Virus record (IMG/VR): IMGVR_UViG_2541047708_000006
Strand: one strand, 5' to 3'
DNA from: a virus
Taxonomy: Duplodnaviria; Heunggongvirae; Uroviricota; Caudoviricetes
Length of the DNA stretch: 58,959 nt
Made by a program: the position numbers and the translations under genes. Each line of letters begins with the position of its first letter. Position 1 is the stretch's first letter. The notes beneath the pieces were generated by a model that saw nothing but the letters and a program-made list of their open reading frames with translations, searched no databases and was not told the DNA's origin. Positions 5,029-58,959 of the stretch are shown here, piece after piece.

Positions 5029-5307
5029 TCAGCTCCATTCCCGAAGCGGTGTTTCCAGCTCCACGACATAATCAGAGAATACAGAAACATCAAACAAGTC
5101 ATCAAGAATGCGAATGTTGACAAAATAACCATCATTCCGGATACAGACAGGTTCTCCCTCTTCTGTTACCCCTGTTTCTGTGTAGGTGAAACCAATTTCA
5201 TCAACTAACAGTTTATTCTGGAGGTCTTCATCTTCCGCCCAGCCAAGAGATGACAGGAAGGCCTTAAACTGCAGTTTGTCATAAAACTTCAAAGTTAAAT
5301 CTTTCAT
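5029..5307 (-). CDS. Small protein downstream of tail fibre gene (possible fibre chaperone)
   Basis: 92 aa ORF overlapping the stf stop by 4 nt (coupled); not a canonical Tfa. Confidence 0.5.
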   Translation of the reverse strand: MKDLTLKFYDKLQFKAFLSSLGWAEDEDLQNKLLVDEIGFTYTETGVTEEGEPVCIRNDGYFVNIRILDDLFDVSVFSDYVVELETPLREWS

Positions 5308-7370
5308 ACGACCTCTTTTAATTGCCTGTCATTTAATTCTTTATGCCATATGCGGAAATTGCGAATATGGCCAAACAGATGTCGTTCTCCAGTATTCGTC
5401 TGCCCTCCAAATCGGATATTTTTATCAGCGGTCACGCCATTATATTCACAATAAACTTCATTAACCGCTTTACCATTTGTCACCACATGAAAGTGACCAT
5501 CAGCTTTTGCAATACATCCAAATGTGGTTTTCTCTGCAAATACATCTGTCGCTGCGCTATTAACATACGAGCCTGAAGGGTTTGACAGACTCATATATAA
5601 CTTACCACTACCTCTGTTGATTGCTGCAATTGCTGATTGCCCGGTATTGGCTGCTGCTATATCCCACACGCGGGGTGCGGCGTTTGGTGCAATATCCCAG
5701 TTTTTATGAATCTCAAGTAAAAAAGTAAATGGTAACTTATAAAGATTATTTCTGGTGGGGATACTAACCAAATCACTGGCTCTTGTCGTTGCGCTGCCTC
5801 CTGAAATAATAAATGATGATACACACGGCCCATTCTCTACTTGTGGGGTGGCAAGATAAATATAGTCACCAGATACTGTTGCCCCACCCTGCTCAGGAGA
5901 ATACTGTATCTGAGAGCCTATTTTTAACTCACCATCAATTGCCTGAATCGTTGCCTCTGCAAAAATCCAGCCTGTGGTCTTATCCTTCCTGACTCGTGCC
6001 GTAATTCTGCCGGCAGCACCACCTGTCATATTAATTTCAAGCGTTTGCGTATCAATGTACGCATCGCCAAGAAAAGTTGTTGCACTACCATCATACTTAT
6101 CAAACCGTATACGTAACCTTACCTGTCGTTCTGTTTTAAAACGGCATGAGGTTGTCACGTACTTGTTATCGCCTGAGACATCAACTGACTTTGTTGCAGC
6201 AATTGATGCCATATTAATAGCCGAAGTTTGCCCAACCAGAGAATCGTTGCAGACAAACTTTCCATAAGTAAAACCAAAACTATCCGTCCCGGTTTCGGGC
6301 ACATCCATGTTTGATGACTTCCCCCAGCTGGCTGGACTTTCCGAATTGAGCATGTAGTTCGTTCTTTGTCCCTCAATAAGCAGGCCATCACACTCAAATC
6401 GCGGCTCATTAATTTCCGCCGTTTTCAGTTCGCCAGATTTGTTGATATATGTTGCCGTTGATGCGCGACTGAAATTAACCTGTTTATCACTGGCGACCTG
6501 AACCACATCGTCACCAATAGCTATTTTTTTATAGCCCGGAGAAAAACCCGCAATCATATCCAGTGAATCGTTAAACGGTATCCACACATCAGGCAGCGGC
6601 GGCACTATATTCGCATAGGGCTCTGCAGTCACTTCCGCTGCGACTTCTGCGCGGTCTGCCGCCTTTTCAGCCCGTGTCGCTGCCGACAGAGCCTCATCCT
6701 TTTTCTGCCCGGCCTTTGTTGCGTCTGCTGCGGCCTCCCGCGCTTTTGTGGTGGCGACTCCGGCATTTTCAGCGGCTGACTCTGCATTACGGCGGGAAGC
6801 CTCTTCACTGTCTGCGGAGGCTTCTTCTGACGCACGGGCATTTGTCTCTGAACGTTCTGCCGCTGTTGCTGCGTTTTGTGCGGCTGTTTTTGAAGAAGCT
6901 GCCGCTTTCGCGCTGTTACCTGCATTCGTCTCTGATGTTTTCGCCGCATTCCTGGACGATGCCGCTGCTGTTTCTGATTTCTTTGCTGCCGCTGCGCTCT
7001 GAGAGGCGGCTTCAGCGTTGCGTGCCACCTCTTCCACCATCTTTTCAAAACGATACAGTGCCTCCGGACGAACATCATCTTCTGTTGCAGCGCCCAGAAA
7101 ATCATTCAATGTCCCCGGCTTAGAATCCTCATACACGGTGATAGCCCCGGCATGTGAAGGCGGAAAACCTTCAACCAGCAGGATAACGCTGTACTGGCCA
7201 TACTCGACATCCATGCTGTAACGTCCGGCTTCATCCGGATTTTCTGAGGCCACCGTGTTCACCACAACCGTGGTGCTGTTACGTTTTGCTTTGAGCTGAA
7301 TGGTGCAGTTCTGTATCGGTTTTCCTGCACCGTCTTTCAGCACGCCTGAAATCTGTACTGCCATATTCAC
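5304..7370 (-). CDS. stf: Side tail fibre protein (lambda Stf-like N-terminus, Ala/Ser-rich shaft, divergent C-terminal domain)
   Basis: N-terminus MAVQISGVLKDGAGKPIQNCTIQLKA... matches recalled lambda Stf; low-complexity Ala-rich middle. Confidence 0.9.
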   Translation of the reverse strand: MNMAVQISGVLKDGAGKPIQNCTIQLKAKRNSTTVVVNTVASENPDEAGRYSMDVEYGQYSVILLVEGFPPSHAGAITVYEDSKPGTLNDFLGAATEDDVRPEALYRFEKMVEEVARNAEAASQSAAAAKKSETAAASSRNAAKTSETNAGNSAKAAASSKTAAQNAATAAERSETNARASEEASADSEEASRRNAESAAENAGVATTKAREAAADATKAGQKKDEALSAATRAEKAADRAEVAAEVTAEPYANIVPPLPDVWIPFNDSLDMIAGFSPGYKKIAIGDDVVQVASDKQVNFSRASTATYINKSGELKTAEINEPRFECDGLLIEGQRTNYMLNSESPASWGKSSNMDVPETGTDSFGFTYGKFVCNDSLVGQTSAINMASIAATKSVDVSGDNKYVTTSCRFKTERQVRLRIRFDKYDGSATTFLGDAYIDTQTLEINMTGGAAGRITARVRKDKTTGWIFAEATIQAIDGELKIGSQIQYSPEQGGATVSGDYIYLATPQVENGPCVSSFIISGGSATTRASDLVSIPTRNNLYKLPFTFLLEIHKNWDIAPNAAPRVWDIAAANTGQSAIAAINRGSGKLYMSLSNPSGSYVNSAATDVFAEKTTFGCIAKADGHFHVVTNGKAVNEVYCEYNGVTADKNIRFGGQTNTGERHLFGHIRNFRIWHKELNDRQLKEVV

Positions 7371-7422
7371 TCCACAAATAAAAAAGGCGCCATTTCTGGC
7401 GCCCGTATCTGGGTTATAAAAT

Positions 7423-10400
7423 TCAACTGATACTGATACCGGCTGTAGATTTCTTCATCACAACAACAAGAAGGTCGCTGATACTGGTCGTTGGCGTCCA
7501 GTTATTAGCACCATATGAAGAAACATTGAAAGTCAGGGTGACATGGCCGTGTCCGGCAGGCATATCAATGACTGATGAAAATACCCTGCTGACATCCGTC
7601 GCGGGTTGCTGAAAGATTTCCTGTCCGTTCTTCAGTACCTGCAGCTTACAGGTTGAATACCAGTATGACTGTTGGTTGTTGCTGTTGAAGTTTTCATGCT
7701 TACCCCCACGAAACAGAACGGGGGGGACTACTATCTGACGGTCAAAAGCCTGGTCATCGTACACAGTGACCGTTATTGTACCGCTGGCATAACTGCCATT
7801 TCTCGGAAAGGCTTTTCCCACCGTTTTGACAATATCACCTTCAATCTGGTTAGCTGACAGTTTTCCCAGAATCCGACAGTTCTGATTAATCGTGACGTTG
7901 TTGAGCGTCCCGGAGTTCGCGTTCACGTTACCGCTGATATCCGCATTTTTCGCAGAAAGTCGACCATCAGGTGTCAGTGAAAACGTTGGGGGATTGCCAC
8001 CGCTGGTAATGGTGGGAGCCGTCAGATATTTCAGGAACACTTCGTTCATGAATATCTGATCGCCCTGCCCAACAAACATCGGCTTTGTGTTGCCATTCGC
8101 AGGATTAATCATCGCAATCCTGTCCGCCGCCAGCAGCACCTGACTCTGCATACCGTCAGGAGTATTCTCAATACCGGCACCAATACCCGCGATATAAAGG
8201 CGTCCGTCCTGCATCTGCTGCAGCTTCACAGCCCACATGCTGTTCAGGTTATTATTTGTATCAACCTGAACCTTCTGTATCTGCTGGATCGCTGCACTCT
8301 GGTCTTCCAGTTTCTTATTGACGGTCTGCGTGATTTCATTGCTGACACCCGTAATGGACGTCCTGATTTCAGCCAGGTCAGGCGCAAGCTGACCGTTATC
8401 AATCTGCGTCCACAACTCCTGAGCCAGATGGGTTTTCCCTATCTCTCCTTTGAAAAAATTCAGATAGCCGGATGCATCATCACTCGGCTGGCCAACAGCC
8501 TCCACAAATGCCGATTTGCCAACGGTGTTCACACTGCGGATGTAAAAATAATAATCATGGCCCGGTTTGATATTGATACTGGCGGCTATCCAGTACAGCG
8601 CCGTGCCAAGATAGCGTGCTGTGGTTTCAACCTGCCTGATATCCGCAATCCGCTTTTCCGAGAACCAGAACTCAAACTGTACCGTCGGATCATAAACCGC
8701 AAGATGCGGCGTGGCGGTTATCTGAAAATACCCCGGTGTCAGCTCAATCTGCGACGGCGCTGCCGGTGCGGCAATCCGGAACGATACCGATGCCGGATCG
8801 CCCTGCTGCCCCCACGCATTTACTGCCCGGACTGTCAGCCTGTAGTTCCCCAGCGCCAGTTGTGTGAAGCGGTATGTGGTTTCCGCCGTCCGGGCTGTGC
8901 TGACCAGCCGCTCACTGCCGTCATCCGCTGCCACGGTCAGGCGAAGCATGAAACTCACGCCCTTCACCACCTTCGGCGTGTCCCAGCGGGCCAGTACCTG
9001 ATACTCCCCGCTGTCTGCGGTGACTTCGGCAGTCAGGTGCTGCACTGCTGGCGGCGTGACACCATTCACCGTGCCGCTCTGGTCGCCGTCAAAGTGCGCC
9101 CCGTTATCCACGATGGCTTCTTTTTCCGGTACATGCTGCACGGCGGTGATGGCATACGTGCCGTCGTCGTTCTCACGGATACTCACGCAGCGGAACAGGC
9201 GCTGGCGCAGCGTCGGCAGCTTCAGCCCCCACACGCTGTATCCGGCAACGCCGTCAGGAACACGGCTAACTTTCACCTTCACGCCGTCGGTGACGGACTG
9301 GACCTCCACGCTGACCGGATTGCCATTTCCGTCAACCAGGCTTATCAGCGTGGTGCCGGAGGATGGCAGCATGATTTCACGGTCGAGCGTCAGTGTCCGC
9401 GCCTGGCTGTTCACCGCCAGCACGCGCCCGCCGATGCTGATACCCGCATAGTCATCATCGCAGATTTCAATGACATCGCCCGGTACATGGCGAAGCCCTT
9501 CTGCGCCCACGCTGAAGTCCACGGTCTGCGTTTCCAGCAGCTCCGTTTTAATCAGCCACAGCCCGGCGCGGTGTGCCTGCCCCCGACTGGTACAGCCAAA
9601 GGCATCCATCTTCGTGACGTTACGACCGTAACGGGCAATGGCCTGCGTGTCCTCCACAAGCTCTGTCGCCGTCTCCCAGCCGTTATCCGGGTCAATCCAG
9701 TTCACCTCAACGGCATTATGGCGGTCTTTCAGGGCGCTGAAGCTGTAGCGGAACGGCGCACCATCATCCGGCATCACCACATTACTGCAGTTATAGGTCC
9801 ACACCTTATCCGATGGTCGGTCCTGCACGAATGTCAGCGTCTGTCCGTTCCATACCGGCATACAGCGCATCGCCGAGCAGAAATCACTGAGCACATCCCA
9901 CGCCTTACGCTGTGTGGTCAGCCAGGCATTACAGGTGATGCGCGGCTCCGTGCCACCAAAGCCATCCGGCACCGACTGGTCGCAATTCTGGCCGATGACA
10001 TACAGCGCCCATTTGTCCACATCCGCCGCACCGAGACGTTTCCCCATGCCGTAGCGCGGATGGGTCAGCATATCCCACAGACACCAGGCCATGTTGTTGC
10101 TGTATGCTGGCTTAAACGTTCCGTCCCAGATACCGCTGTATTGCCGCGTCTGCGGGTTATAGTTCGACGGCACCTGCAGAATGCGCCCGCGAAGATGATA
10201 ATTACGGCTCACCTGCTGACTGCCGAACTGTTCCGAGTCCACCTGCACGCCGACCAGTGCCGTGTTCGGGTAGCACTGTTTCACATCGATGATTTCGGTG
10301 TATGACGACCAGAGCGTTTTGTTCTGCAGCTGGTCTGTGGTGCTGTCCGGCGTCATCCTGCGCATCCGGATATTAAACGGGCGCGGCGGCAGGTTACCCA

Positions 10401-10905
10401 CCACCACCGAGGCCAGATACTGCGAGGTGGTTTTGCCCTTAATGGTGATGTCTTTTTCCGTCACCCAGCCACCGTTACGCTGTATCTGAACCAGCAGGCG
10501 GACTTCCGACGGATTCCTGTCCCCCTTTGAGGTGGTTTCCACCAGTGTCTGCACGCCGAAAGTAAAACGCAGACGGTCAATGTTTGCCGACGTGATGGTC
10601 CGGGTGATCGGCGTGTCATATTTCACTTCTGTACCGAGCACCGTCTCGGAACCGGAGGATTCAAACCCCTCCGGCGGAGTCTGCTCCTGCTCACCTGCCC
10701 GGAACACCACCGTGACACCGGATATGTTGGTATTCCCCTCAGTGTCCAGCACCGGCGTACTGTTCAGCAGCACGCTTTTTAATCCATCCACCGGACCTTC
10801 AACCGGCCCTTCGCTGATGGCATCGATCACACTCAGCAACTGCGTGGACTTCAGGTTGTCCTTCGCTTCGCGCGGGGTATGCCCCTTACTGCTGCCTTTA
10901 CCCAT
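7423..10905 (-). CDS. J: Tail tip host-specificity protein J
   Basis: 1160 aa; lambda J-like over most of length; C-terminal receptor-binding region differs from my recollection of lambda. Confidence 0.95.
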
Positions 10906-10965
10906 TCCTCACGCTCCGTAAACGACAAAACCGCCCGCAGGCGGTTTCACATAAAACATTTTGCA

Positions 10966-11637
10966 TCAGCGACCAATCACCACAACCTGACCACCGTCCC
11001 CTTCGTCTGCCGTGCTGATCTCCTGAGAAACCACGCGTGACCCCACGCGCATTTCACCGTACAGAACGGGCAGAACATTGCCCTGGGCAACCATGTTATC
11101 CAGTGAGGAGAAATAGGTGTTCTGTTTGCCGTTATCCGTTGTCTGTGTACGGGGAGTTCTGGCTTTCGGTGCCAGCATCTGCGCCACACCACCGAGCACC
11201 ATACTGGCACCGAGAGAAAACAGGATGCCGGTCATACCACCGGCCCCAATGGCTGCCCCCCATGCTGCAAGGGTGGCTCCGGCGGTAAAGAATGATCCGG
11301 CAATGGCGGCAGCCCCCAGGACAATCTGGAATACGCCACCTGACTTGGCCCCGGCGACTCTGGGAACAATATGAATCACAGCGCCATCAGGCAGAGTCTC
11401 ATGTAACTGCGCCGTTAACCCGGACGTGCTGACGTCCCGCCCGGCAATCCGTACCTGATACCAGCCGTCGCTCAGTTTCTGACGAAACACCGGGAGCTGT
11501 GTGGCCAGTGCGCGGATGGCTTCAGCCCCCGTTTTCACACGAAGGTCGATGCGGCGGCCAAATCGTTGCAAATCCCCGTAAAGGCAGATGCGCGCCATGC
11601 CCGGTGACGCCAGAGGGAGTGTGTGCGTCGCTGCCAT
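10966..11637 (-). CDS. I: Tail assembly protein I
   Basis: 223 aa, position and sequence like lambda I. Confidence 0.9.
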   Translation of the reverse strand: MAATHTLPLASPGMARICLYGDLQRFGRRIDLRVKTGAEAIRALATQLPVFRQKLSDGWYQVRIAGRDVSTSGLTAQLHETLPDGAVIHIVPRVAGAKSGGVFQIVLGAAAIAGSFFTAGATLAAWGAAIGAGGMTGILFSLGASMVLGGVAQMLAPKARTPRTQTTDNGKQNTYFSSLDNMVAQGNVLPVLYGEMRVGSRVVSQEISTADEGDGGQVVVIGR

Positions 11638-12278
11638 TTGTCGGTATACCTCTCTCGTTTGCTCAGTTGTTCAGGAATATGGTGCAGCAGCTCGCCATCA
11701 CCACAGTAAATGGCGGCATGATTCGGCACCGATGAACCAAAACAGCACAGCAGCACATCGCCCGGTTGTGCTGATGACAACGGCACCTGATACAGCCCTG
11801 TGGCCTCCAGATTATCCAGATAGAGATTCTGACCGTGACGCCACCAGTCATCCTCGCGATGAAAATCCGGCATCTCAATCCCCGCCAGATGATAAGCATC
11901 CCGGAACAGCGTGTAACAGTCCGTCACCCCGTGCTCAAAGCGCCGCCCGGTGAGATGCGGCACACAGCGGAACTTATGAATCGCCCCCCGGCAGACCAGC
12001 CACCACGGCAAATCACTCTGCACCTGCAGCCGCCGGTCGGCCTCACTCAGCCAGGGCAGACCACCGGGGTGACTGTGGACCAGCGCCACAATCTCACCCT
12101 GCATTTCTGCCTGCAGCCAGTCTTCCGGCGACATACGGAAATACGCCTCCGGCTCACCGGAGATATTCACGCAGGGGAAATATCTTTCCCCCTCCGGCGT
12201 GCTTACCACGAAGCCGCACGACTCCGCTGGCGCACATCGCCGGGCGTGCGCCAGAATCGCTGATTCTGTCTGTGTCAT
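11535..12278 (-). CDS. K: Tail tip assembly protein K (NlpC/P60-like)
   Basis: MTQTESAILAHARRCAPAESCGFVV...; ORF overlaps I start by about 100 nt. Confidence 0.9.
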   Translation of the reverse strand: MTQTESAILAHARRCAPAESCGFVVSTPEGERYFPCVNISGEPEAYFRMSPEDWLQAEMQGEIVALVHSHPGGLPWLSEADRRLQVQSDLPWWLVCRGAIHKFRCVPHLTGRRFEHGVTDCYTLFRDAYHLAGIEMPDFHREDDWWRHGQNLYLDNLEATGLYQVPLSSAQPGDVLLCCFGSSVPNHAAIYCGDGELLHHIPEQLSKRERYTDKWQRRTHSLWRHRAWRASAFTGICNDLAAASTFV

Positions 12279-12283
12279 GGGAT

Positions 12284-12982
12284 TTACTGCGAAAGTTTGT
12301 TAATGGAAAGGAAGCCGCCAAAGTTGCCGACGTTATTGCGAAACTTACAGCCACTCAGGCATTTGCTGCATTTATCCTTCGTGATATCGGACGTCGGCTG
12401 GTCATATTCATCCGCGACCGCCGGACCGCTATAACCGCACTCATCACCGCGATAGGTCCAGGTGCAGGTGTTGGCCAGCATGATGCGCCCCGGAAAAACA
12501 GCACCATCCGTTTCCGTCGGCGTGGACAGTACAAAAGAGGCACTCACCGCGCTCAGTTCGCTGCACTGCTCAATGCGCCAGCGGCTGATCACCTCCTGCT
12601 CCGGATCGGCGTCACTGTTTCCGTTGACGAAGTTCACCGCATCCAGAAAACGGGCGTAAACCTTACGCCTGACCACCGTTCCGCCGACCAGACTCTGCAG
12701 ATCTTCCGCCATCCCGGTGACCATACCGTACAGGTTAGAAACCGTCAGCGTGGGGCGCGTACTGGTGCCTTTGCCATTCAGTTCAAAACCACTCCCCTGA
12801 ATGGGATACGGCTGATACTGTCGCCCCTGCCAGGTGACCGGCTCACCTTTTTCGTTCTGCTCATTACAGAAAAAATAACGTTCTCCACCGACCTCTGTCA
12901 GATCGATTTCCCAGAGCACCACGCTGGCCGACTGCTCCGCACGGGTGCATTCATTCAGTGTTTCCTGCCGGATATCCTGCAT
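12284..12982 (-). CDS. L: Minor tail protein L
   Basis: 232 aa, lambda L-like, Cys cluster near C-terminus. Confidence 0.9.
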   Translation of the reverse strand: MQDIRQETLNECTRAEQSASVVLWEIDLTEVGGERYFFCNEQNEKGEPVTWQGRQYQPYPIQGSGFELNGKGTSTRPTLTVSNLYGMVTGMAEDLQSLVGGTVVRRKVYARFLDAVNFVNGNSDADPEQEVISRWRIEQCSELSAVSASFVLSTPTETDGAVFPGRIMLANTCTWTYRGDECGYSGPAVADEYDQPTSDITKDKCSKCLSGCKFRNNVGNFGGFLSINKLSQ

Positions 12983-22182: not shown

Positions 22183-22309
22183 CAGGTGTAATTTCATTGA
22201 TACCACAACTTAATTACTGTTTCAGGTTGGTGTATTGATTGTATTTTTCTCTTATTATTCATACAGATATAGCGAACAACAAAACCACCACCAGTCCCCT
22301 TAAAATGCT

Positions 22310-22370
22310 CATAAATAGCGAAAACCCGCGCGCCTGACGCCCCGTAGCCTGTCAGATCGCCGGAAAGGAC
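22310..22370 (-). promoter_or_regulatory. Satellite cos site (lambda-like cosN flanks, different 12-nt core)
   Basis: CATAAATAGCGAAAACCCGCG-CGCCTGACGCCC-CGTAGCCTGTCAGATCGCCGGAAAGGACCCG parallels helper cos at 37110-37175, differing mainly in the cohesive-end core. Confidence 0.7.
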
Positions 22371-22398
22371 CCGCCAGCCAGAGCAGGCCCTAATTTCA

Positions 22399-36956: not shown

Positions 36957-37098
36957 GAAACAGTCTCACAATAAATACAGGGTCCGACATGAAAGTGCCC
37001 GAAAATGACTTTTTTAGGCGTTTTCATGTCGGACCTTTTACGGATTCGATATTAGAAAAAACAAATAGTTATGTTCGAGAAGTACCGACATGATTTTC

Positions 37099-37180
37099 CC
37101 CGGAAAAATTTCATAAATAGCGAAAACCCGCGAGGTCGCCGCCCCGTAACCTGTCGGATCGCCGGAAAGGACCCGAAAAA
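37099..37180 (-). promoter_or_regulatory. Helper prophage cos site (cosN core about 37133-37144, cohesive end GGGCGGCGACCT on minus strand)
   Basis: Reverse complement reads GGGCGGCGACCTCGCGGGTTTTCGCTATTTATGAAA..., the lambda left end; preceded by ...CCGACAGGTTACG as at the lambda right end. Confidence 0.85.
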
Positions 37181-38906: not shown

Positions 38907-39138
38907 TAAGCAAAAAAGCTCCCGAAGGAGCCTTCATTTTCACTTTCTTAAATCTAACGACAGATGGCTAACATTTAAGTATTGTGAAATATTATCAAAT
39001 GTAATCATCATTGATTTACAAAAGATACATTTTGCCCCGAAAGGATTTCTGTCAGAAACATCAAAAGATGATGTTCTATACTGAGAACCATGGCAACACG
39101 GGCATCTAAAGTGAATATGGTTTGTAATATTTTCTACC

Positions 39139-39351
39139 TCAAAGTGCCACTACATGAACAGCTGCAGGGCCTTTAGGTCCGTTCTCAATACCAAATTCGA
39201 CTTCCTGATTCTCAGTTAACGTTTTGAAATCGTTGCTCTGAATAGCTGAGAAATGCACAAACACATCTTTGCTACCATCTTTCGGCGTGATGAAACCAAA
39301 ACCTTTTTCAGGGTTAAACCATTTCACTAAACCAGTCATTTTGTTAGACAT
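39139..39351 (-). CDS. Cold-shock protein (CspA family)
   Basis: [19 protein letters not shown]...[11 protein letters not shown] motifs. Confidence 0.9.
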
Positions 39352-39714
39352 CATTATTACCTTTTGAAGAAGTTAGCCCTTGGGCAGAATGGTCCGAAAA
39401 AAAATATCAGAGAGAAAAACCAACAAGAAAATCTCAAGAGGTACAAATAATAAAATTATAACAATGACTGCTTCAGATAATTTTGTAACAAACCAGAACA
39501 CCATTAACGCATGATTAACCAACCATAGCAAGGATTACTTTTGTAAAGAAAAACACACGAATGAAACAATAGCTTTATTTATTAATAAAACGTGTCATTC
39601 TGTCTAATGACCTTTTATCTTACCCTTAAGATTTCAAGGATTTTGACTCATGGAAGAGTCCTTTTTATTTAAATTTCACATTCAGCGCTAAAAATAATCC
39701 GATTTAATATTAAT

Positions 39715-42312: not shown

Positions 42313-42587
42313 GTGGTACTTTTTGTGGGAGTCATCCACTTACGCACTTTGTTTTGCTATGCCAGCAGTTAGCTTCTGCTGTAAAACTATTCATGCAGCA
42401 AACCTGCACTTCACCACAATGGTTAGCATACTTTTCCTGATTAAGTTATTGCCAAATATGCTGGCCATTGTTTCATGTATTGGACCTCCTTACTATTTAT
42501 TAAAGAGATCCAATATTCACCACTCTGTCTGTATCTCCACTCAGGCATCAGCCTTCTTCGTTATCGTATACAGACAAACTATGAATT

Positions 42588-42803
42588 TTAATCAGTAATT
42601 ATGACATTTGCTGCTGCAGGACCTTTAGCACCACTCTCTACAGAGAAGGTAACCTTTTGACCTTCAAATAAGGTTCGAAAATTATCATTCTGAATCGCAG
42701 AAAAATGCACAAACACATCTTTACTACCATCAACAGGAGAAATAAAGCCAAAACCTTTATCAGCGTTAAACCATTTTACTAAACCAGTCATTTTATTTGA
42801 CAT
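42588..42803 (-). CDS. Cold-shock protein (CspA family)
   Basis: [21 protein letters not shown]... Confidence 0.9.
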
Positions 42804-43103
42804 TCTACATTCCTTAACTTGAGCCTTTCGGCATAAATGGCTTGTATAACAGAAACGACTTCGTACTTAATTGGAGAGACTCAAAGAAGGAATAAGTGAA
42901 TAACACCTGAAATGAGAACTGCTTTAGTAAACTACTTCGTATATCGTCTGTTCTTCAAACCGACGCAATCATTAACGCATAGTTGAACATATGAAGCAAT
43001 GTTTATTTTAGACATCCAGCCATCTTCAACCCCATCAAAAAACTATAGCTTTCTTCAGGAACGTGTGTATAGTGCGCCCAGTTATCAGTATTAAGGAATT
43101 TTT

Positions 43104-49392: not shown

Positions 49393-50085
49393 ATGAACAT
49401 AGGAAACCGAGTCAGACAACTTCGCCAAGCGAAGAACATGAAAATCGCCGATCTCGCTGAAGCAATAGGAGTAGATGCGGCGAACATCTCGCGCTTAGAA
49501 ACGGGTAAGCAAAAACAATTTACCGAACAAACACTGAGTAATATTGCCAAGAGCTTAGGTGTTGATATTGCTGATCTCTTTACCTCTGCCCTCAAAAGTA
49601 ATACTGTATATAAAAACAGTAATAATGAGGATGTTGCGCAGGTGAAGGATGTGTTCCGTATTGAAATGCTGGATATCAGTGCCAGTGCGGGAAATGGCCT
49701 TATCCAGGGCGGTGATGTCATTGATGTGATTCATGCCATCGAATACAGAACTGATAATGCTGTATCAATGTTCGGCGGACGACCGGCCAATCACATCAAA
49801 GTTATCAACGTTCGTGGGGACAGTATGTGTCCAACCATTGAGCCAGGAGATCTCATCTTCGTTGATGTCAGCATCAATCAGTTTGATGGTGATGGTATAT
49901 ATGTCTTTGGTTTTGATGACAAAATATACGTTAAAAGACTTCAAATGATTCCTGACAAACTGCTGGTGATTTCTGATAACCAGATTTACCGTGAATGGGG
50001 AATTACTAGCGAAAACGAACACCGATTCATGGTCTTTGGAAAGGTCTTAATCAGTCAGTCGCAAACCCTTAAGAGACATAATTAA
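49393..50085 (+). CDS. cI: CI-type repressor (HTH plus S24/LexA-like peptidase domain)
   Basis: N-terminal HTH; C-terminal VRGDSM serine motif and later Lys; 230 aa. Confidence 0.9.
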   Translation: MNIGNRVRQLRQAKNMKIADLAEAIGVDAANISRLETGKQKQFTEQTLSNIAKSLGVDIADLFTSALKSNTVYKNSNNEDVAQVKDVFRIEMLDISASAGNGLIQGGDVIDVIHAIEYRTDNAVSMFGGRPANHIKVINVRGDSMCPTIEPGDLIFVDVSINQFDGDGIYVFGFDDKIYVKRLQMIPDKLLVISDNQIYREWGITSENEHRFMVFGKVLISQSQTLKRHN

Positions 50086-50399: not shown

Positions 50400-50912
50400 T
50401 TACTCAGATTTGAACTTTGGTTCTGGCAAAAGAGGAGGAGTTGAGTCCTCGAATCGTAGCCAGTGCTCCCAGATATCGTGGGATTGTAATTCCAGAAGAC
50501 CAATTTGACGTGATGCAACTGCAGTGCCAGCTATAGTTCCTCCTACATAATCAACCTGGACGGACTTTGACGCTTTCTCAATTAATTCTGTCCAAGCTTC
50601 ACTTTCCGCGTTAAAAGAAGCAGTTAATTCCTGCAGACGCTGTGGATCATCCTTGTTGTCTTGTTTCAAACGATTCAGGGCGGCCACCGAATACTTATTC
50701 TTAACCCAACTAACCTGAGCTAACTGAACTCTCTGACAAGCGTCCATATCAGTAGTTGTTTCCTGAGGCATATCAAAGCAGGAAATAAAAAAAGTCTCAA
50801 CACCATCATTTAGACTACTGCTCGGCTGGTTCAAAGCATCAGAAGCATTGGATGCTATCGGTATTATCAGTGCTACCGACAGAATCAAACGTTTAACATA
50901 AATCGCTCCCAT
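50400..50912 (-). CDS. Secreted/periplasmic protein of unknown function (moron)
   Basis: 170 aa with N-terminal signal peptide (LILSVALIIPIASNASDA); opposite strand to surrounding operon; own terminator. Confidence 0.6.
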   Translation of the reverse strand: MGAIYVKRLILSVALIIPIASNASDALNQPSSSLNDGVETFFISCFDMPQETTTDMDACQRVQLAQVSWVKNKYSVAALNRLKQDNKDDPQRLQELTASFNAESEAWTELIEKASKSVQVDYVGGTIAGTAVASRQIGLLELQSHDIWEHWLRFEDSTPPLLPEPKFKSE

Positions 50913-51379
50913 TTAATTATCCCCTCTAAGAACAGAGTCATCCAGATTAGCCGAATCCTTGTTGTTGGGGAATAACCAGGCCCACCTCGCCTGATGTGGC
51001 TAAAAGCAGGCACATAACAGCTAAGTATTTTCAACCAGAGAGAATCCTTAGCGTTGTGGTGAATGCGGCTCAGCGCACGCGGGTTAAGGTTGAGGCTGAC
51101 AGTCGACCTTCTGTGGATACCCACCCGCCTGGTGTGCAACCTTCGCCAGGCACCGGGAGGCCCCGGCACCACAACTTTATGCTGTGTGTAGTCCTGGCGG
51201 TACCAGCTTGTACCCTTGCTTCCGGCTGGTACCGCTCTTTTTACAAAACAGAGAAGAGCATCACCGGACGACGGGCTCATAACCCAATCCACCCGGGCGG
51301 CTGCCACCGCAGGTGTTCTTCTCTGTTTTGTGGAGAAACCAACCGACCTTGCAGGGTCGATATGATGAGGAGCAGCAAA

Positions 51380-51742
51380 ATGGCTAGCGAACGCAGTACC
51401 AACGTGCAGGAATTTATCGGGGAGCTGGACGGCGGCGTATTTGAAACCAAAATCGGCGCAGTTCTCAGTGAAGTCGCTTCCGGTGTGATGAACACGAAAA
51501 CCAAAGGTAAGGTCTCGCTCAACCTGGAAATCGAACCGTTTGATGAGAACCGTGTGAAAATAAAACACAAACTCTCATATGTTCGTCCGACTAACCGCGG
51601 GAAAATTTCCGAAGAAGACACCACCGAAACGCCGATGTATGTCAATCGCGGTGGTCGCCTGACTATTCTGCAGGAAGACCAGGGACAATTACTGACTCTT
51701 GCCGGTGAACCTGACGGAAAACTCCGCGCAGCAGGTCATTAA
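51380..51742 (+). CDS. YfdP-like protein
   Basis: Start placed at MASERSTNVQEF; upstream part of the long ORF has junk-like composition; similarity to CPS-53 YfdP is recalled, not searched. Confidence 0.6.
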   Translation: MASERSTNVQEFIGELDGGVFETKIGAVLSEVASGVMNTKTKGKVSLNLEIEPFDENRVKIKHKLSYVRPTNRGKISEEDTTETPMYVNRGGRLTILQEDQGQLLTLAGEPDGKLRAAGH

Positions 51743-52632: not shown

Positions 52633-52759
52633 TTTCATTACTGCAAATGCCCCTGCGGGGGCATTTATGGAAACGTAATTGACTCAATAATCGCCGGATG
52701 GTGAGGGCTTTCTTTTACCAGAATTCAGCGCGGTGCAGCGCATATACGTGGAGAACAAA

Positions 52760-53284
52760 ATGTCATTTATTAAAACTTTTTCCGGGAAGCATTTTTATTA
52801 TGACAGGATAAATAAAGACGACATCGTTATTAACGATATCGCGGTTTCTCTTTCAAATATCTGTCGCTTTGCAGGACATCTTTCACATTTCTACAGCGTC
52901 GCCCAACATGCGGTGCTTTGCAGCCAACTGGTACCGCAGGAATTTGCTTTTGAAGCGTTAATGCATGATGCAACAGAAGCGCATTGCCAGGACATCCCGG
53001 CGCCACTGAAACGCCTTCTTCCTGACTATAAACGGATGGAAGAAAAAATAGACGCCGTAATCCGTGAGAAATACGGGTTACCCCCGGTTATGAGTACGCC
53101 CGTGAAATATGCCGATCTCATCATGCTGGCAACCGAACGCCGCGATCTCGGGCTTGATGATGGCTCTTTCTGGCCCGTACTGGAAGGTATCCCGGCAACA
53201 GAGATGTTCAAAGTTATTCCACTGTCGCCAGGCCATACCTATGGGATGTTTATGGAACGCTTTAAAGAGTTAACTGAGTCGTAA
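52760..53284 (+). CDS. HD-domain protein (YfdR-like 5'-deoxynucleotidase)
   Basis: H...H and HD motifs (AGHLSHFYSVAQHAV, LMHDATEAH); RBS GGAG before ATG 52760. Confidence 0.7.
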   Translation: MSFIKTFSGKHFYYDRINKDDIVINDIAVSLSNICRFAGHLSHFYSVAQHAVLCSQLVPQEFAFEALMHDATEAHCQDIPAPLKRLLPDYKRMEEKIDAVIREKYGLPPVMSTPVKYADLIMLATERRDLGLDDGSFWPVLEGIPATEMFKVIPLSPGHTYGMFMERFKELTES

Positions 53285-53392
53285 AAATCAGCACGTACGA
53301 ATTCAAACTCTGCCATAAAAGAACATATAAGTAATTTATTAACATATAGATATAGGTTATATTACAAATTGAAAAATTATTGGAGAGCAACA

Positions 53393-54259
53393 ATGAATCA
53401 AAATCCATTCTCATTCTATGACTTTCTTGGATATTTAATACCAGGTGGTTTTTTTATCCTATTAATGTATTTCTGTGGTTTGACATTCGATCTAGATATT
53501 GTTATTGACTTAAGTGAATTGCTCAGAGGTCAAAGTCAAATCTTTGGCATTTTGAACTACGCTTCAATAGTTATTATATCTTATATAGCTGGACATTTTA
53601 TTTCTATCACATCAGCATTTTTTATCGAAAAATACATGAATAAAGAATTAGGATATCCTTCCAAATATCTATTTAAAAAATTGATAGATACCTCAGAAAG
53701 CATTTGTAGCCCATCATGCGATGAGAGAAGCGCTGATAAAAAAACAAAAATAAAGAATCGCATAATCAAATGCGTATTATGTCCAATAATACTATGGGAT
53801 TTTATAACACAAAAACTATGTTATTCTCAATCTCTACCATTTCATTTAGCTAATACAACATGGTTAATGATCAAAGAAGGTTATGAGAAAAAGTTCATAA
53901 CAAATCGCCAATTATTACAAGATAAAAACGGACTTGATGATGATCTCTTCAGATTGGCATATCATTATGTTTATGAGTTTTCAAAACAACATCAAACAAA
54001 AATTCAAAACTATGTTGCATTATATGGTTTTTGCAGAAACATATGTTTAATCTTTATAATTTCATTTTGGGTATCAGTTCCAACCTTTATTTATCGATTA
54101 TGTACTCATAGTGATTATCTTTATAGTTTACTTTCAATAATGCTTAGCTTTTTCTTCGTCTATGTTTTCTATGTTGGTTTTGTTAAATTTTATAGAAGAT
54201 ATACTTTAGAAGTATTAATGGCATTTGCTGTACTTCAAAGTAACGACACTATTCGTTAA
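53393..54259 (+). CDS. AT-rich multi-pass membrane protein of unknown function
   Basis: Hydrophobic helices at both ends; GGAGAG RBS 5 nt before ATG 53393; low GC. Confidence 0.65.
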   Translation: MNQNPFSFYDFLGYLIPGGFFILLMYFCGLTFDLDIVIDLSELLRGQSQIFGILNYASIVIISYIAGHFISITSAFFIEKYMNKELGYPSKYLFKKLIDTSESICSPSCDERSADKKTKIKNRIIKCVLCPIILWDFITQKLCYSQSLPFHLANTTWLMIKEGYEKKFITNRQLLQDKNGLDDDLFRLAYHYVYEFSKQHQTKIQNYVALYGFCRNICLIFIISFWVSVPTFIYRLCTHSDYLYSLLSIMLSFFFVYVFYVGFVKFYRRYTLEVLMAFAVLQSNDTIR

Positions 54260-54261
54260 TA

Positions 54262-54507
54262 ATGTTGCTCCCGTGTGCAGACGGGATAATGGAGAAACGT
54301 ATGCTGAACCTCGATTGTGTTCCTATCTCAACTTATTGCAAAGAAACTGGCGAAACTCCTGAAGCAATAAACAAACGTGTACAGCGCGGTGTTTGGCGTG
54401 AAGGTGTTCAGGTTTTAAAGGTTGAAGGCGTTAAGGAGAGGTGGATTGATCTTAGTGAGGTTGCAAAATGGGCCAGACAAAACTGCTCAAACTACCGCGC
54501 GGCGTAA
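54262..54507 (+). CDS. xis: Putative excisionase
   Basis: 81 aa ORF overlapping int start; position upstream of int; weak motif. Confidence 0.45.
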   Translation: MLLPCADGIMEKRMLNLDCVPISTYCKETGETPEAINKRVQRGVWREGVQVLKVEGVKERWIDLSEVAKWARQNCSNYRAA

Positions 54508-55640
54508 CAATCAGGAAACACCACCAGGGAGAAACGATCAATATAACTTTCACCTACAAAGGAGTTAGATGTCGTGAGCCGCTTTCCAATCTGGAAGTAA
54601 CACCAAAGAACATTAAATACGCCGAGCGTACACTCGGCGAAATCCATAATAAGATCGAAAGGGGAACATTCATTTATGCAGAATATTTTCCCCGTTCTGC
54701 TCGTTTGAAAATTTTTGGTAATGCTGCTGCAAGCAAAACGGTAAAGATGTACCTAGACGAATATCTTGAAATCTGCGAAACAAGAAAACTTTCACCCTCT
54801 ACGATTGGTGGCTATAAAAAATGCCGTAGTGCGTTAGCCTCACTTCACATTTGCCCTGCAAGTGAATTAACACCAGCAACCCTGAAAGCGTGGATTCAAA
54901 GCCAGAAAACAACCTTAAAAACCATTCGCAACCAGTTATCTTTCCTACGGTCAGCACTTGATGAAGCCGTGACCGATGGGGTACTTCAAATTAACCCCGT
55001 ATCGTTAGTAACAGCTTCGCGCTACCAAAGTGATAAGTCAGAAGCAGAAAGCAGCTATGTGGTTGATCCGCTATCACCAGCAGAAGTTGATGCATTACTA
55101 GCAGCAGCCGGAAACAAACAATGGGAAAATCTGTTCCGGTTCGCCATACATACAGGCCTGCGTAGTTCTGAATTATGTGCCCTACGATGGCATGATATCG
55201 ACTTTGTTGGAAAAACAGCCCATGTTCAGAGCGCAAGTGTTGTCGGAGTTATCAAAGGAACAAAGACAAAAGCCGGTACCCGTAAAGTTGAACTGACTGA
55301 AGAAGCAATGTTGGCGTTGATAAACCAGAAGCCATTTACATTCATGAAGGATGCTACTGTCTTTGAAGATCCAAAGACCAATAAACCCTGGGCAAGTGCT
55401 GATGCAATCAGGAAAAAAGCATGGGTGCCAACATTGCGAAAAGCAGGTATTCGTTACAGAAATCCATATCAAACTAGGCATACATTCGCCACCCGCCATA
55501 TCAGCCGGGGAGCAAACCTGTTTTGGCTTGCAGCTCAAATGGGGCATAAAGGGCCGGAAATGTTATTTCGTCATTATGGTTCATATTTAAAGGAATATGA
55601 CGGTAATACGACCAGCAATATCACAAAAAAAGCCACTTAA
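54468..55640 (+). CDS. int: Prophage tyrosine integrase
   Basis: 390 aa; C-terminal RHTFATRH...GH...FRHYGSY catalytic motifs. Confidence 0.9.
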   Translation: MGQTKLLKLPRGVTIRKHHQGETINITFTYKGVRCREPLSNLEVTPKNIKYAERTLGEIHNKIERGTFIYAEYFPRSARLKIFGNAAASKTVKMYLDEYLEICETRKLSPSTIGGYKKCRSALASLHICPASELTPATLKAWIQSQKTTLKTIRNQLSFLRSALDEAVTDGVLQINPVSLVTASRYQSDKSEAESSYVVDPLSPAEVDALLAAAGNKQWENLFRFAIHTGLRSSELCALRWHDIDFVGKTAHVQSASVVGVIKGTKTKAGTRKVELTEEAMLALINQKPFTFMKDATVFEDPKTNKPWASADAIRKKAWVPTLRKAGIRYRNPYQTRHTFATRHISRGANLFWLAAQMGHKGPEMLFRHYGSYLKEYDGNTTSNITKKAT

Positions 55641-55653: not shown

Positions 55654-56043
55654 TTAGGAGGCTCTCGATTTAAGCATTTCCGTACACTTAGCAAAGAGCC
55701 TCTCAGTTGTTAGAATCGCAACTTCAGACTGTTTAGAAGTGACCGATTGATCAAGTCGATAGTCTGCAACAATCCTCTGAGCTTTAAGTTGACTCAGGAT
55801 AAAACTAATCCCTTTTAGATATCTAGCTTCATATACTTCACTTCCTCTTGAAGCATCACCCTGCAAATAATTGATTAGCCCCTGATGACTGTCTTTCGGC
55901 CCGTTTACCATACAAGGCAAGACATGATGGTAAGCGCCATAGTAGGATCTTGCTATAGCATTTCGATAGCCGATTTCGTCATTACGTTGATGACAGTCTT
56001 TTGCAAAACCGAGAAAATCTTGACTATTAACCGGCATGTGCAA
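55654..56043 (-). CDS. Hypothetical protein, possible HEPN-like fold (second gene of two-gene operon)
   Basis: 129 aa; helical; RSYYGAYHH segment; overlaps upstream gene by 17 nt. Confidence 0.6.
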   Translation of the reverse strand: MHMPVNSQDFLGFAKDCHQRNDEIGYRNAIARSYYGAYHHVLPCMVNGPKDSHQGLINYLQGDASRGSEVYEARYLKGISFILSQLKAQRIVADYRLDQSVTSKQSEVAILTTERLFAKCTEMLKSRAS

Positions 56044-56842
56044 CCCTCCGGGTAATCAGACCTAATTCGGAGATAGCATTCTGCTCAATATGAGTGTCTT
56101 TACATTCAAACCAAACAGTAAAATCTTTACCGACTAAACAATCGTGCTCAGCCATTGAAAAAGCAAGCTCAATATTCATATCAGCGATTTGTTCAGCATC
56201 AGAAGACTTTGTCATGAATACAATCGCATTCACTTTCTCTTCCGAAATATTATAAAAACGCATTCCCGAAAGATGAACCTTCTGAGAATCCATGACATTG
56301 GCTACATTATTGAAAATAAGTTCATATTCTAAACCAGAAAGATCGGCACGTTGCTTAAAGGATTCGACCTGGGAAACAACTTCATCAAAATTGTTGTCCA
56401 TTTTTTCAGGCTCCTTATCTCCGAACAATTTAGAGTATGACTGGAAATACTTCTCCGCCAACGCCATTTTCCCCATAAAGAGGGAGTTTTCATAAGCTTG
56501 AAGATAAATAAACGGGGATACGAAGCTTTCAGCAAGCTTAATGCTTGTTTCAAAGCTTTTCTTCAACGTACCGTAATCTGACAAGAAAACAAGAAAATTC
56601 TTTGCAACAACCTTATTATGGCATACCTGCAAGGAACGCTCAAAGAAGCCTATCGCCTCATTCACTTGACCATGTGCACCATAGACCAACGCTAAAAGAT
56701 AGTCCTCAGAGACAGGATCTCTAATTGCTTCAATCTCACGTAACATCCTTCTAAAGTTAAAGTCATCAATCCTCACTCCATCTTTGAGGTATTTAGTTAG
56801 CCCCGCGCTAATAACTGATGCTTTTTTTGCTGGCTGCAACAT
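56027..56842 (-). CDS. Hypothetical protein (first gene of two-gene operon between int and attR)
   Basis: 271 aa ORF, AT-rich, AT-rich promoter region upstream (56843-57270). Confidence 0.6.
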   Translation of the reverse strand: MLQPAKKASVISAGLTKYLKDGVRIDDFNFRRMLREIEAIRDPVSEDYLLALVYGAHGQVNEAIGFFERSLQVCHNKVVAKNFLVFLSDYGTLKKSFETSIKLAESFVSPFIYLQAYENSLFMGKMALAEKYFQSYSKLFGDKEPEKMDNNFDEVVSQVESFKQRADLSGLEYELIFNNVANVMDSQKVHLSGMRFYNISEEKVNAIVFMTKSSDAEQIADMNIELAFSMAEHDCLVGKDFTVWFECKDTHIEQNAISELGLITRRVAHAG

Positions 56843-57272
56843 TAAAAACCTTATCTTACAAATAGTTGGTAATGATGTTGAATTATTTTTTGTTCTTTAT
56901 GGCTAATAAGATTACATGAAGGGACAACTTCTGGCCACCTTAGAAAACACTCACTTTAGTAACAAGAGTCAATAATATTGTTGACAAATCACAAAAAAAC
57001 AAACTTATCCAAAACAATCTGGTTTATTACAAAGCCTCTGTGCATAAATCTGTGTATAACATCATTTTTACACACATTTTTATAAAAATATTTTTTAGCA
57101 AAAAATGCTATCTATCTCCGAAACTGCAACCACAAACCATTAATTCCAAATGAAACTATTTTAAAATAAATAGTAAGACAGTAACAGGACGGAAAAAGTT
57201 CCGCAAAAGAGCCGCGTGTAAAATCAACAATATTTGGCTATTTAAATTCAATGAATTACATAACTATGGACA

Positions 57273-57451
57273 CGGGTTCAACTCCCGCCAGCTCCACCAA
57301 TCATGATTGGACGGTGTAAGGACTACACCAACAAAAACAGGAAGTTATAAGTCTCAGCAGGACACCGACCAGACGGTGAGGAGACAAAAAAGGATACGCA
57401 ACGGAGTCGCGACTCCCTATGACATTAAAGCCCGCTGATGCGGGCTTTTTT
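57273..57451 (+). repeat. Right copy of direct repeat: partial ssrA 3' end (57273-57299) plus downstream region; prophage attR
   Basis: CGGGTTCAACTCCCGCCAGCTCCACCA then sequence paralleling 1061-1215 with scattered mismatches. Confidence 0.8.
57427..57451 (+). terminator. Rho-independent terminator (duplicate of ssrA terminator)
   Basis: AAGCCCGC-TGA-TGCGGGCTT plus T-run. Confidence 0.6.
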
Positions 57452-57882
57452 ATTGGTCCTGACCCGCCCTGAATAGAATTCATCCAATTACAGTCCAGAC
57501 ATATACAGTATCCCTCAGCTCAGTATCAGCTTCTCGACAAATGGTCACTGTTATTTACCCGTTGCCAGAAAGAGAATAATTTGCCCCCATAGCCAGCCTT
57601 CCTGGAATCTGTATATTCATTAATATTGTTATCGATTCCATCAAGTAACATAGGTTGGATGCGATTGATCTTACTCACATTAGTCGACACGGAACTCAGT
57701 AAGTTGAACTCTGAAAAAGCAGTTTAAATAGCATTTAAACAAATGCCACCAGTTCGAAAAAGAGTATAAGCACACTTAATATATTGTTTTAATTATTCAT
57801 TTCCTTTCAACCCAATTCTTATCCCTCACATTATTTGTTATTAATTTGTTGTTTTTGATCACAATAAGAAAACAATATGTAA

Positions 57883-58959
<1,077 letters not shown>

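Follow-up and report, generated by a model that had tools for sequence, protein, structure and literature searches.

C_RS15230, a candidate phage-exclusion protein with probable distant kinship to Csx27, encoded in a swappable cargo cassette of an Escherichia coli CFT073 prophage

Single-gene membrane exclusion proteins of the kind carried by prophages, such as HK97 gp15, T4 Imm and P22 SieA, together with RexB, the membrane half of the lambda RexAB pair, offer one comparison for the gene considered here, C_RS15230 of Escherichia coli CFT073. This gene lies at positions 53393–54259 of a 58,959-nucleotide stretch of viral DNA (IMG/VR record IMGVR_UViG_2541047708_000006, Caudoviricetes; hereafter the window), in a prophage of about 56 kb inserted in ssrA. 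Like the exclusion proteins, its product is predicted to be a small polytopic inner-membrane protein without a recognisable enzymatic domain, and it is dispensable temperate-phage cargo located near int and early genes. No sequence or fold similarity to HK97 gp15, T4 Imm, SieA or RexB was found in Pfam, PHROG annotations, PADLOC, PDB or BFVD, and, unlike the phage exclusion proteins, the C_RS15230 family reaches the chromosomes of many phyla. A two-component abortive-infection (Abi) system of the RexAB type needs a conserved adjacent sensor partner, and no conserved neighbour was present in the 77 genomic loci or across the viral loci analysed here. On the basis of genomic context, the C_RS15230 protein is a candidate prophage-borne membrane factor that excludes other phages, a reading to which a probability of roughly 45% is assigned.

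A second point of comparison is Csx27, an accessory protein of type VI-B1 CRISPR-Cas systems. According to Makarova et al. 2019, as paraphrased in PMC7642515 and PMC11662929, Csx27 belongs to a broad family of proteins with four transmembrane (TM) helices, which is linked to competence genes, ubiquitin-like modules and WYL-HTH proteins and is predicted to form DNA channels. Both Csx27 and the C_RS15230 family possess four predicted TM helices, and both are small, patchily distributed and common in Bacteroidota; a weak likeness extends over the N-terminal motif and TM1–2, and again from the block preceding TM3 to TM4. The C_RS15230 family differs in being about 80 amino acids (aa) longer, owing to a predicted structured cytoplasmic domain between TM2 and TM3, and in being stand-alone and, in Enterobacteriaceae, prophage-borne.

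The relationship to Csx27 emerges from profile comparisons of the protein and of 96 family members that are 25–52% identical to it. The PADLOC hidden Markov model for Csx27 (PDLC01605) matches the C_RS15230 protein at E = 1.4e-5 (aa 6–268, model positions 4–188 of 206) and 72 of the 96 relatives at E <= 0.01 (2.2e-10 for the strongest); tm_4, the second VI-B-associated PADLOC model, matches 24 of them. The NCBIfam Csx27 model (NF040557) matches 16 of the 96, with a best E of 2e-6 that is far under its cut-off. The matches are collinear: depending on the member they cover the N-terminal part, the C-terminal one or the two together, and their order is constant. As no other membrane family recurs among the 96 members in Pfam, PADLOC or NCBIfam, the Csx27 signal is specific rather than an artefact of hydrophobicity, and the family is likely to be a distant relative of Csx27 within a shared superfamily. 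Identity with Csx27 proper was considered and excluded: the NCBIfam model gives the C_RS15230 protein 14.9 bits against a cut-off of 65 bits (E 0.02, aa 5–43 only), and the gene is adjacent to neither cas13b nor a CRISPR array. A PADLOC scan found no cas13b in the window or among eight large neighbours of distant relatives, these being restriction-modification (RM) or Dpd proteins or unassigned, and the only Rfam matches in the window are two cspA leaders and a transfer-messenger RNA (tmRNA), with no CRISPR array near C_RS15230. Competence, ubiquitin-like and WYL-HTH partners are not among the 25 most frequent Pfam families of 142 immediate neighbours. Taken together, C_RS15230 likely encodes a new prophage-borne, enlarged, stand-alone protein of the Csx27 type.

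The gene itself is well defined. The open reading frame (ORF) runs on the plus strand from an ATG at 53393 to a TAA at 54259, encodes 288 aa, and is 100% identical to positions 3063068–3063934 of the CFT073 genome (NC_004431.1), where it is annotated as C_RS15230 (WP_001075212.1) with the RefSeq label 'hypothetical protein'; no paper naming WP_001075212 or 'Csx27-like' was found in the literature. The ATG is taken as the start because all homologues begin with MNQNPFS, and an in-frame TTG at 53369, which would give 296 aa, was rejected on the same ground. A ribosome-binding site, GGAG at 53382–53385, is spaced 7 nt from the ATG. The G+C content (GC) is 0.283 and that of third codon positions (GC3) 0.21, compared with a GC of 0.462 for the upstream gene yfdR and 0.439 for the downstream xis-int genes. 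The sequence-only reading of this DNA had described an ORF of this length with its own strong ribosome-binding site, a GC markedly lower than that of its neighbours and a position immediately upstream of xis-int, and all of these features are borne out, the downstream genes being recognised as an excisionase (PHROG 2917) and an integrase (Arm-DNA-bind_2 and Phage_integrase).

C_RS15230 is a real gene under purifying selection. Given the base composition of the cassette in which the gene resides, 288 codons without a stop would arise with a probability of 2.5e-11; the stop-free run spans 324 codons, and the maximum in 2000 shuffles was 149. Relative to a 78%-identical allele, the overall ratio of nonsynonymous to synonymous substitution rates (dN/dS) is 0.24; the value of 1.27 for the TM3–TM4 turn comes from 22 codons in a mosaic alignment, and no weight is placed on it. 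These observations bear on the proposal that the segment is hitch-hiking DNA in a slot that tolerates insertions, encoding a membrane protein that is neutral or mildly toxic and may be silenced by H-NS. Extreme AT-richness is typical of xenogeneically silenced DNA, and the low GC and GC3 of the gene, along with the lack of a strong promoter in its leader, fit such a view. Against it stand not only the dN/dS but also a reading frame that is intact in the sampled rows of the 203 carrier E. coli genomes, a family of 937 clusters in which 11 residues are invariant and 26 nearly so across phyla, and a confident AlphaFold model built from co-variation, all of which make hitch-hiking improbable.

The predicted architecture of the protein agrees with the earlier description of a polytopic membrane protein with hydrophobic ends and a hydrophilic middle. 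Kyte-Doolittle hydropathy places TM segments at approximately aa 13–35, 52–77, 213–236 and 243–266, separated in the middle by a 135-aa hydrophilic stretch with 22 lysines and arginines, and this pattern is kept across the 96 family members. The median number of lysines plus arginines among these members is 18 for the central domain, 4 for the C-terminal tail and at most 1 for each of the two outer loops; by the positive-inside rule, this distribution puts both termini and the central domain on the cytoplasmic side. The predicted topology is therefore N-in/C-in in the inner membrane, with minimal periplasmic exposure through variable loops of about 16 and 6 aa. AlphaFold returned a model with a predicted local distance difference test score (pLDDT) of 89.4 and a predicted template modelling score (pTM) of 0.88, in which the central domain is predicted to be a cytoplasmic helical bundle; no structural match to this model was found in PDB or BFVD.

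Conservation is concentrated in four blocks. The first is the N-terminal motif NPFSxYDFLGYxxPG (aa 4–18; 53402–53446), which is at least 80–90% conserved in the 96 members and is the part most often matched by Csx27 models. It overlaps the region encoding TM1, a short periplasmic loop and TM2 (53429–53623), where Y64, G67, H68, S74 and E79 are conserved, and the second block runs from the cytoplasmic half of TM2 to YPS. The central lysine- and arginine-rich helical domain follows (aa 78–212; 53624–54028); its aa 95–180 are variable. The third block is the juxtamembrane helix leading into TM3 (D..R...H...E....H..K..NYVALYGF.R), with D184, R187, H191, E195, H200, K203, NYVALYGF and R215 conserved. 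The remaining region (54029–54256) encodes TM3, the periplasmic turn of about 6 aa, TM4 and a cytoplasmic C-terminal helix, KFYRR..LE..M, which constitutes the fourth block. Eleven residues are invariant in the 96 members (F6, D10, Y14, Y64, G67, S74, E79, H191, G212, R215 and K265), and 26 more reach 90% conservation or above. Judged from the predicted topology and the positions of the helices, the conserved polar residues D10, H68, S74, E79, H191, R215 and K265 are predicted to lie at the cytoplasmic membrane interface.

A polytopic protein of this kind might also be homologous to some widespread transporter of the core genome, a finding that the sequence-only reading had named as contradicting it. 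Apart from the polytopic nature of the protein, nothing speaks for such an origin: neither the protein nor the 96 relatives match a Pfam or NCBIfam transporter family, there are only four TM helices with minimal periplasmic loops, and C_RS15230 is carried by 203 (3.7%) of the 5426 complete E. coli genomes, as a single copy in each and within a prophage in every copy examined. Together with the location of the gene in a swappable prophage cassette, this renders a transporter extremely improbable.

The cassette is delimited by comparison with related prophages. Homology of two compared loci (L090 and L091) to the window, as determined by blastn, stops at 53279 and resumes at 54270, and these ends define a discrete cargo cassette of 990 bp (53280–54269, plus strand; GC 0.28) that comprises the leader and C_RS15230. 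In the sibling prophages of strains 1802D011 and AR_0081, a segment of about 610 bp with two small ORFs of 120 and 71 aa replaces C_RS15230, and the flanks are again yfdPQR on one side and, on the other, the same int and a xis gene with an identical product. The combination of yfdR and the integrase recurs in many E. coli prophages, but the full yfdR-C_RS15230-xis-int arrangement is found in 179 genomes only. The 78%-identical allele lies behind yfdPQR in another prophage remnant, near zur/dinF/lexA; its leader is identical and its coding region diverged, which points to mosaic exchange. Hence, C_RS15230 is accessory cargo, or a 'moron', in a swappable cassette between yfdPQR and xis-int.

The family to which this cargo belongs is large. 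A profile search over 1.84 billion cluster representatives (clusters at 50% identity) retrieved 937 relatives (E <= 0.001), of which 202 reach E <= 1e-30. Almost all of the 937 are 260–320 aa in length (about 280) and matched over their full length, and they come from Bacteroidota (many Flavobacteriia), Gamma- and Betaproteobacteria, Bacillota, Chloroflexota, Acidobacteriota, Spirochaetota and others. In a collection of 5.8 billion proteins, family members are named 'hypothetical protein' throughout. No Pfam domain was detected in the protein or in the 96 relatives, and searches of Pfam, NCBIfam and PDB sequences with the protein and the 96-member alignment returned no informative family. PHROG 12528 matches the protein over 288 of 288 positions (8e-174) and is the same family; being unannotated, it gives no functional information on C_RS15230. 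Weak matches to the PADLOC models PDC-M48A and PDC-S47 were also seen, in at most 6 of the 96 members and with E values of about 1e-3 to 1e-4.

The positions occupied by relatives recur across different backbones. In approximately 50 of 72 IMG/VR viral loci, the gene is followed by a small xis-like ORF and an integrase, and the same int-proximal slot is used in at least four other backbones, which differ in their upstream genes and encode integrases of about 330, 336, 390 and 401 aa. Klebsiella phage P7641, an isolated phage, carries a 52%-identical homologue in this slot. In the P2-like phage vB_EcoM-705R2, a 42%-identical homologue stands alone between gpQ and gpA, as it does in related P2-like prophages; with both neighbours on the opposite strand, it must own a promoter. 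The P2 gpQ-gpA interval has been defined as a defence hotspot (Rousset et al. 2022, PMC9122126). The homologue shares this slot, as an independent gene, with cargo such as old, tin and the systems described in PMC9122126; it is distinct from every system validated or named so far, and PADLOC assigns it to none of them. Other copies are located in a Mu-like prophage and beside a plasmid Rep3 gene, and a distant member lies beside a prophage integrase in Sideroxydans (L175).

Several distant members have defence genes as neighbours. In Fulvivirga and Aliifodinibius (L019 and L032), a member sits between hsdS-like and hsdR genes in type I RM operons; others are near a type IIG RM enzyme (L014) or DpdJ (L079) or adjoin a ParE toxin (L173), and cytosine methylases are also found among the neighbours. 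At one locus (L174, 6001–8247), an AbiH-family gene follows a member in the same orientation, at a distance of about 100 bp, and the two could form a two-gene defence locus. No partner gene is conserved: in ORF clustering, the commonest neighbour family occurs in 8 of the 77 genomic loci, and the viral loci share no conserved neighbour, so the family works as a single-gene unit. A recurring downstream neighbour of about 390 aa, which at first appeared integrase-like, was dismissed after it proved to be ten unrelated proteins. In a metagenome contig (L170, ctg340571_9x_l, 5187–12659), a member is situated among more than 12 small same-strand ORFs, including NADAR, RraB, NTP_transf_6 and acetyltransferases, in a layout like that of a chromosomal integron cassette array. 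In 75 of the 77 genomic loci the gene has a lower GC than its flanks, with a median difference of −8 GC points, and the same holds for every one of the 72 viral loci (0.30 versus 0.45). Low GC thus persistently marks the gene as a mobile accessory one, and is explained only in part by a composition rich in I, L, F, Y, K and N.

The exclusion reading is founded on the int-proximal slots, the P2 hotspot, the RM and AbiH neighbourhoods and the remote similarity to Csx27. A higher prior for genes in cargo slots is also provided by the observation that six of eight randomly chosen P4-hotspot loci of unknown function were phage-protective (bioRxiv 10.64898/2026.02.27.708500). Under this reading, the C_RS15230 protein would protect the lysogen or the induced cell from other phages by acting at the cytoplasmic membrane, and this might occur in two ways. 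As an Abi-like single-protein sensor-effector, it would detect an infection cue through its cytoplasmic domain, and the TM bundle would then perturb membrane integrity or potential. Alternatively, as in superinfection exclusion (Sie), it would impose a block to genome entry within the membrane, in the manner of HK97 gp15 or T4 Imm. The Abi-like version is somewhat more likely, because the cytoplasm is where the conserved surface and the sole domain of any size are predicted to lie. A role in superinfection exclusion or abortive infection was what the sequence-only reading had guessed; the genomic contexts agree with that guess, and homology to a characterised Sie or Abi protein was not found.

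Several observations weigh against exclusion, the first of which concern expression. The AT-rich leader (108 bp, 53285–53392, plus strand; GC 0.26) has only weak sigma-70-like matches: a pattern scan found no sigma-70 promoter at >=9/12 consensus, the best relaxed match being TTATTA-16-TATATT at 53336–53363 (8/12), and no terminator was found between C_RS15230 and either yfdR or xis. Lacking a consensus promoter and a terminator, C_RS15230 may ride the early-left transcript in CFT073, and it may be expressed only after induction and not in the lysogen. Beyond the weak Csx27 and tm_4 matches, Pfam, PADLOC, PHROG and NCBIfam reveal no homology to a characterised Sie, Abi or defence protein, and the very small periplasmic exposure disfavours direct periplasmic contact with incoming phage parts. 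Furthermore, several distant relatives reside in polysaccharide-biosynthesis loci with glycosyltransferases, WecG and epimerases, and one lies between fabB (with fabA-fabB upstream) and amino-acid biosynthesis genes, so that the association of relatives with defence genes is no more than suggestive. Finally, in the one published assay Csx27 lowered Cas13b interference in E. coli, repressing Cas13b from two different loci (bioRxiv 10.1101/092577). In view of these points, C_RS15230 may equally be an ordinary unannotated moron.

The Csx27 result and the layout of the operon could also be read as signs of a role that serves the phage itself, either by early conditioning of the membrane in the course of induction or infection or by an anti-defence restraint of a host immune effector, in analogy to the repression of Cas13b by Csx27. 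C_RS15230 is co-oriented with yfdPQR and xis-int, no terminator or consensus promoter intervenes, and hence it is probably co-transcribed with them on induction, as would suit such a function. Yet the gene is dispensable, being missing from sibling prophages of the same backbone, and in P2-like phages it forms an independent transcription unit in a cargo hotspot, outside the early operon. Relatives in bacterial RM operons, beside AbiH and among chromosomal genes are likewise hard to reconcile with an anti-defence role, and neither the window nor the eight large neighbours scanned with PADLOC contain a Cas13b-type partner. On balance, a phage-serving role is quite unlikely.

The metabolic neighbourhoods of distant relatives raise another proposal, namely that the protein is an envelope or membrane-physiology conversion factor, which, acting on the cytoplasmic side, could for example modulate the synthesis of lipids or polysaccharides, or else have a part in membrane stress or homeostasis. 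Int-adjacent serotype-conversion genes are classic, as exemplified by gtrABC of P22 and the Sf phages and oac of Sf6. GT2, GT1 and GT4 glycosyltransferases, WecG, epimerases, hexapeptide transferases and UDP-GlcNAc 2-epimerase are all represented next to distant homologues, one member is just downstream of fabA-fabB, and a site for catalysis or lipid binding could be built from the conserved D, H, S, E, R and K residues at the cytoplasmic interface. However, each polysaccharide or lipid Pfam family is found in at most 3 of the 142 immediate neighbours and there is no conserved partner; similarity to a transferase, flippase, polymerase or acyltransferase, or a structural match, was not detected. 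The P2 defence hotspot, the RM operons and the AbiH adjacency would be unexpected for an envelope-conversion gene, and this explanation is considered unlikely; exclusion at the membrane is the favoured, albeit tentative, reading.

The remaining features of the window describe the prophage in which the cassette is housed. The tmRNA gene ssrA is located at 698–1060 (Rfam), and its 3' end together with the terminator is duplicated at 1029–1218 and 57268–57456 (direct repeats D2 and D5; 148 nt at 94% identity for the ssrA 3' end and 35 nt at 89% for the terminator). These repeats represent the left and right attachment sites, attL and attR, and everything between them is thus prophage; attR (57268–57456, plus strand) marks the prophage end about 3 kb downstream of C_RS15230 and is followed by glaH/csiD at 57982. 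At the other end, the ORF at 1–483 (160 aa) is probably smpB. From the LexA/CI-like repressor (49393–50085), the gene order continues through yfdP, yfdQ (upstream of yfdR; DUF2303), yfdR, C_RS15230, xis and int to two minus-strand ORFs and attR. The gene yfdR (52733–53284, plus strand), encoding an HD-domain 5'-deoxynucleotidase, is the last conserved gene of yfdPQR and the upstream neighbour of C_RS15230. Downstream are the excisionase gene xis (54301–54507, plus strand; PHROG 2917 at 8e-45; RefSeq coding sequence WP_001331174.1) and the tyrosine integrase gene (54468–55640, plus strand; Arm-DNA-bind_2 at 7.7e-24 and Phage_integrase at 1.2e-16 in Pfam).

Between int and attR, two overlapping minus-strand ORFs of 129 and 271 aa occupy 55654–56842. 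The 129-aa product belongs to PHROG 5176 and weakly matches PADLOC HEPN_IX (1.4e-3), with a motif R-x5-Y rather than R-x4-6-H, and the 271-aa product belongs to PHROG 17809 and has a weak TPR match. Sibling prophages with the same integrase carry other ORF pairs here (205/108, 594/299, 237/113 or 283/137 aa) or an AAA ATPase; given these different contents, the interval is a second hypervariable cargo slot, and the ORF pair is probably a further locus of the defence or toxin-antitoxin kind. A minus-strand gene at 50400–50912, flanked by the CI-like repressor and the early-left operon, encodes a 170-aa protein with an N-terminal signal sequence, a full-length member of PHROG 7681 with a weak LprI lysozyme-inhibitor match (E 0.0076), which is probably another moron. 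Just upstream of yfdP, GC rises to as much as 0.55 at 50885–51742, where long ORFs overlap on both strands and RefSeq annotates a frameshifted pseudogene, C_RS29400. Farther away, the two Rfam cspA thermoregulator leaders on the minus strand (39093–39509 and 42525–42964; 107 and 156 bits) indicate that the prophage has two cold-shock-protein-type genes, and these two loci account for a 200-nt direct repeat (39152–39351 and 42604–42803). A 79-nt direct repeat, 85% identical, occurs in the structural and late region at 22295–22373 and 37097–37175, 14.8 kb apart.

For the biology of this prophage family, which is common in uropathogenic E. coli, the yfdR-xis junction and the int-attR interval are swappable cargo slots. 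Should it have no anti-phage activity, C_RS15230 would stay an ordinary unannotated prophage moron. A broader and more doubtful conjecture is that stand-alone Csx27-like proteins constitute a widespread, unrecognised single-gene membrane immunity module shuttled by temperate phages between phage cargo slots, in which the conserved site at the cytoplasmic interface would sense infection and gate the TM bundle. If the C_RS15230 protein does exclude phages, a single-gene, membrane-embedded defence family of about 900 clusters in many phyla, with no solved structural analogue, would have been missed by current defence finders, and C_RS15230 would provide a tractable E. coli handle on the Csx27 family and its role in type VI-B CRISPR immunity.

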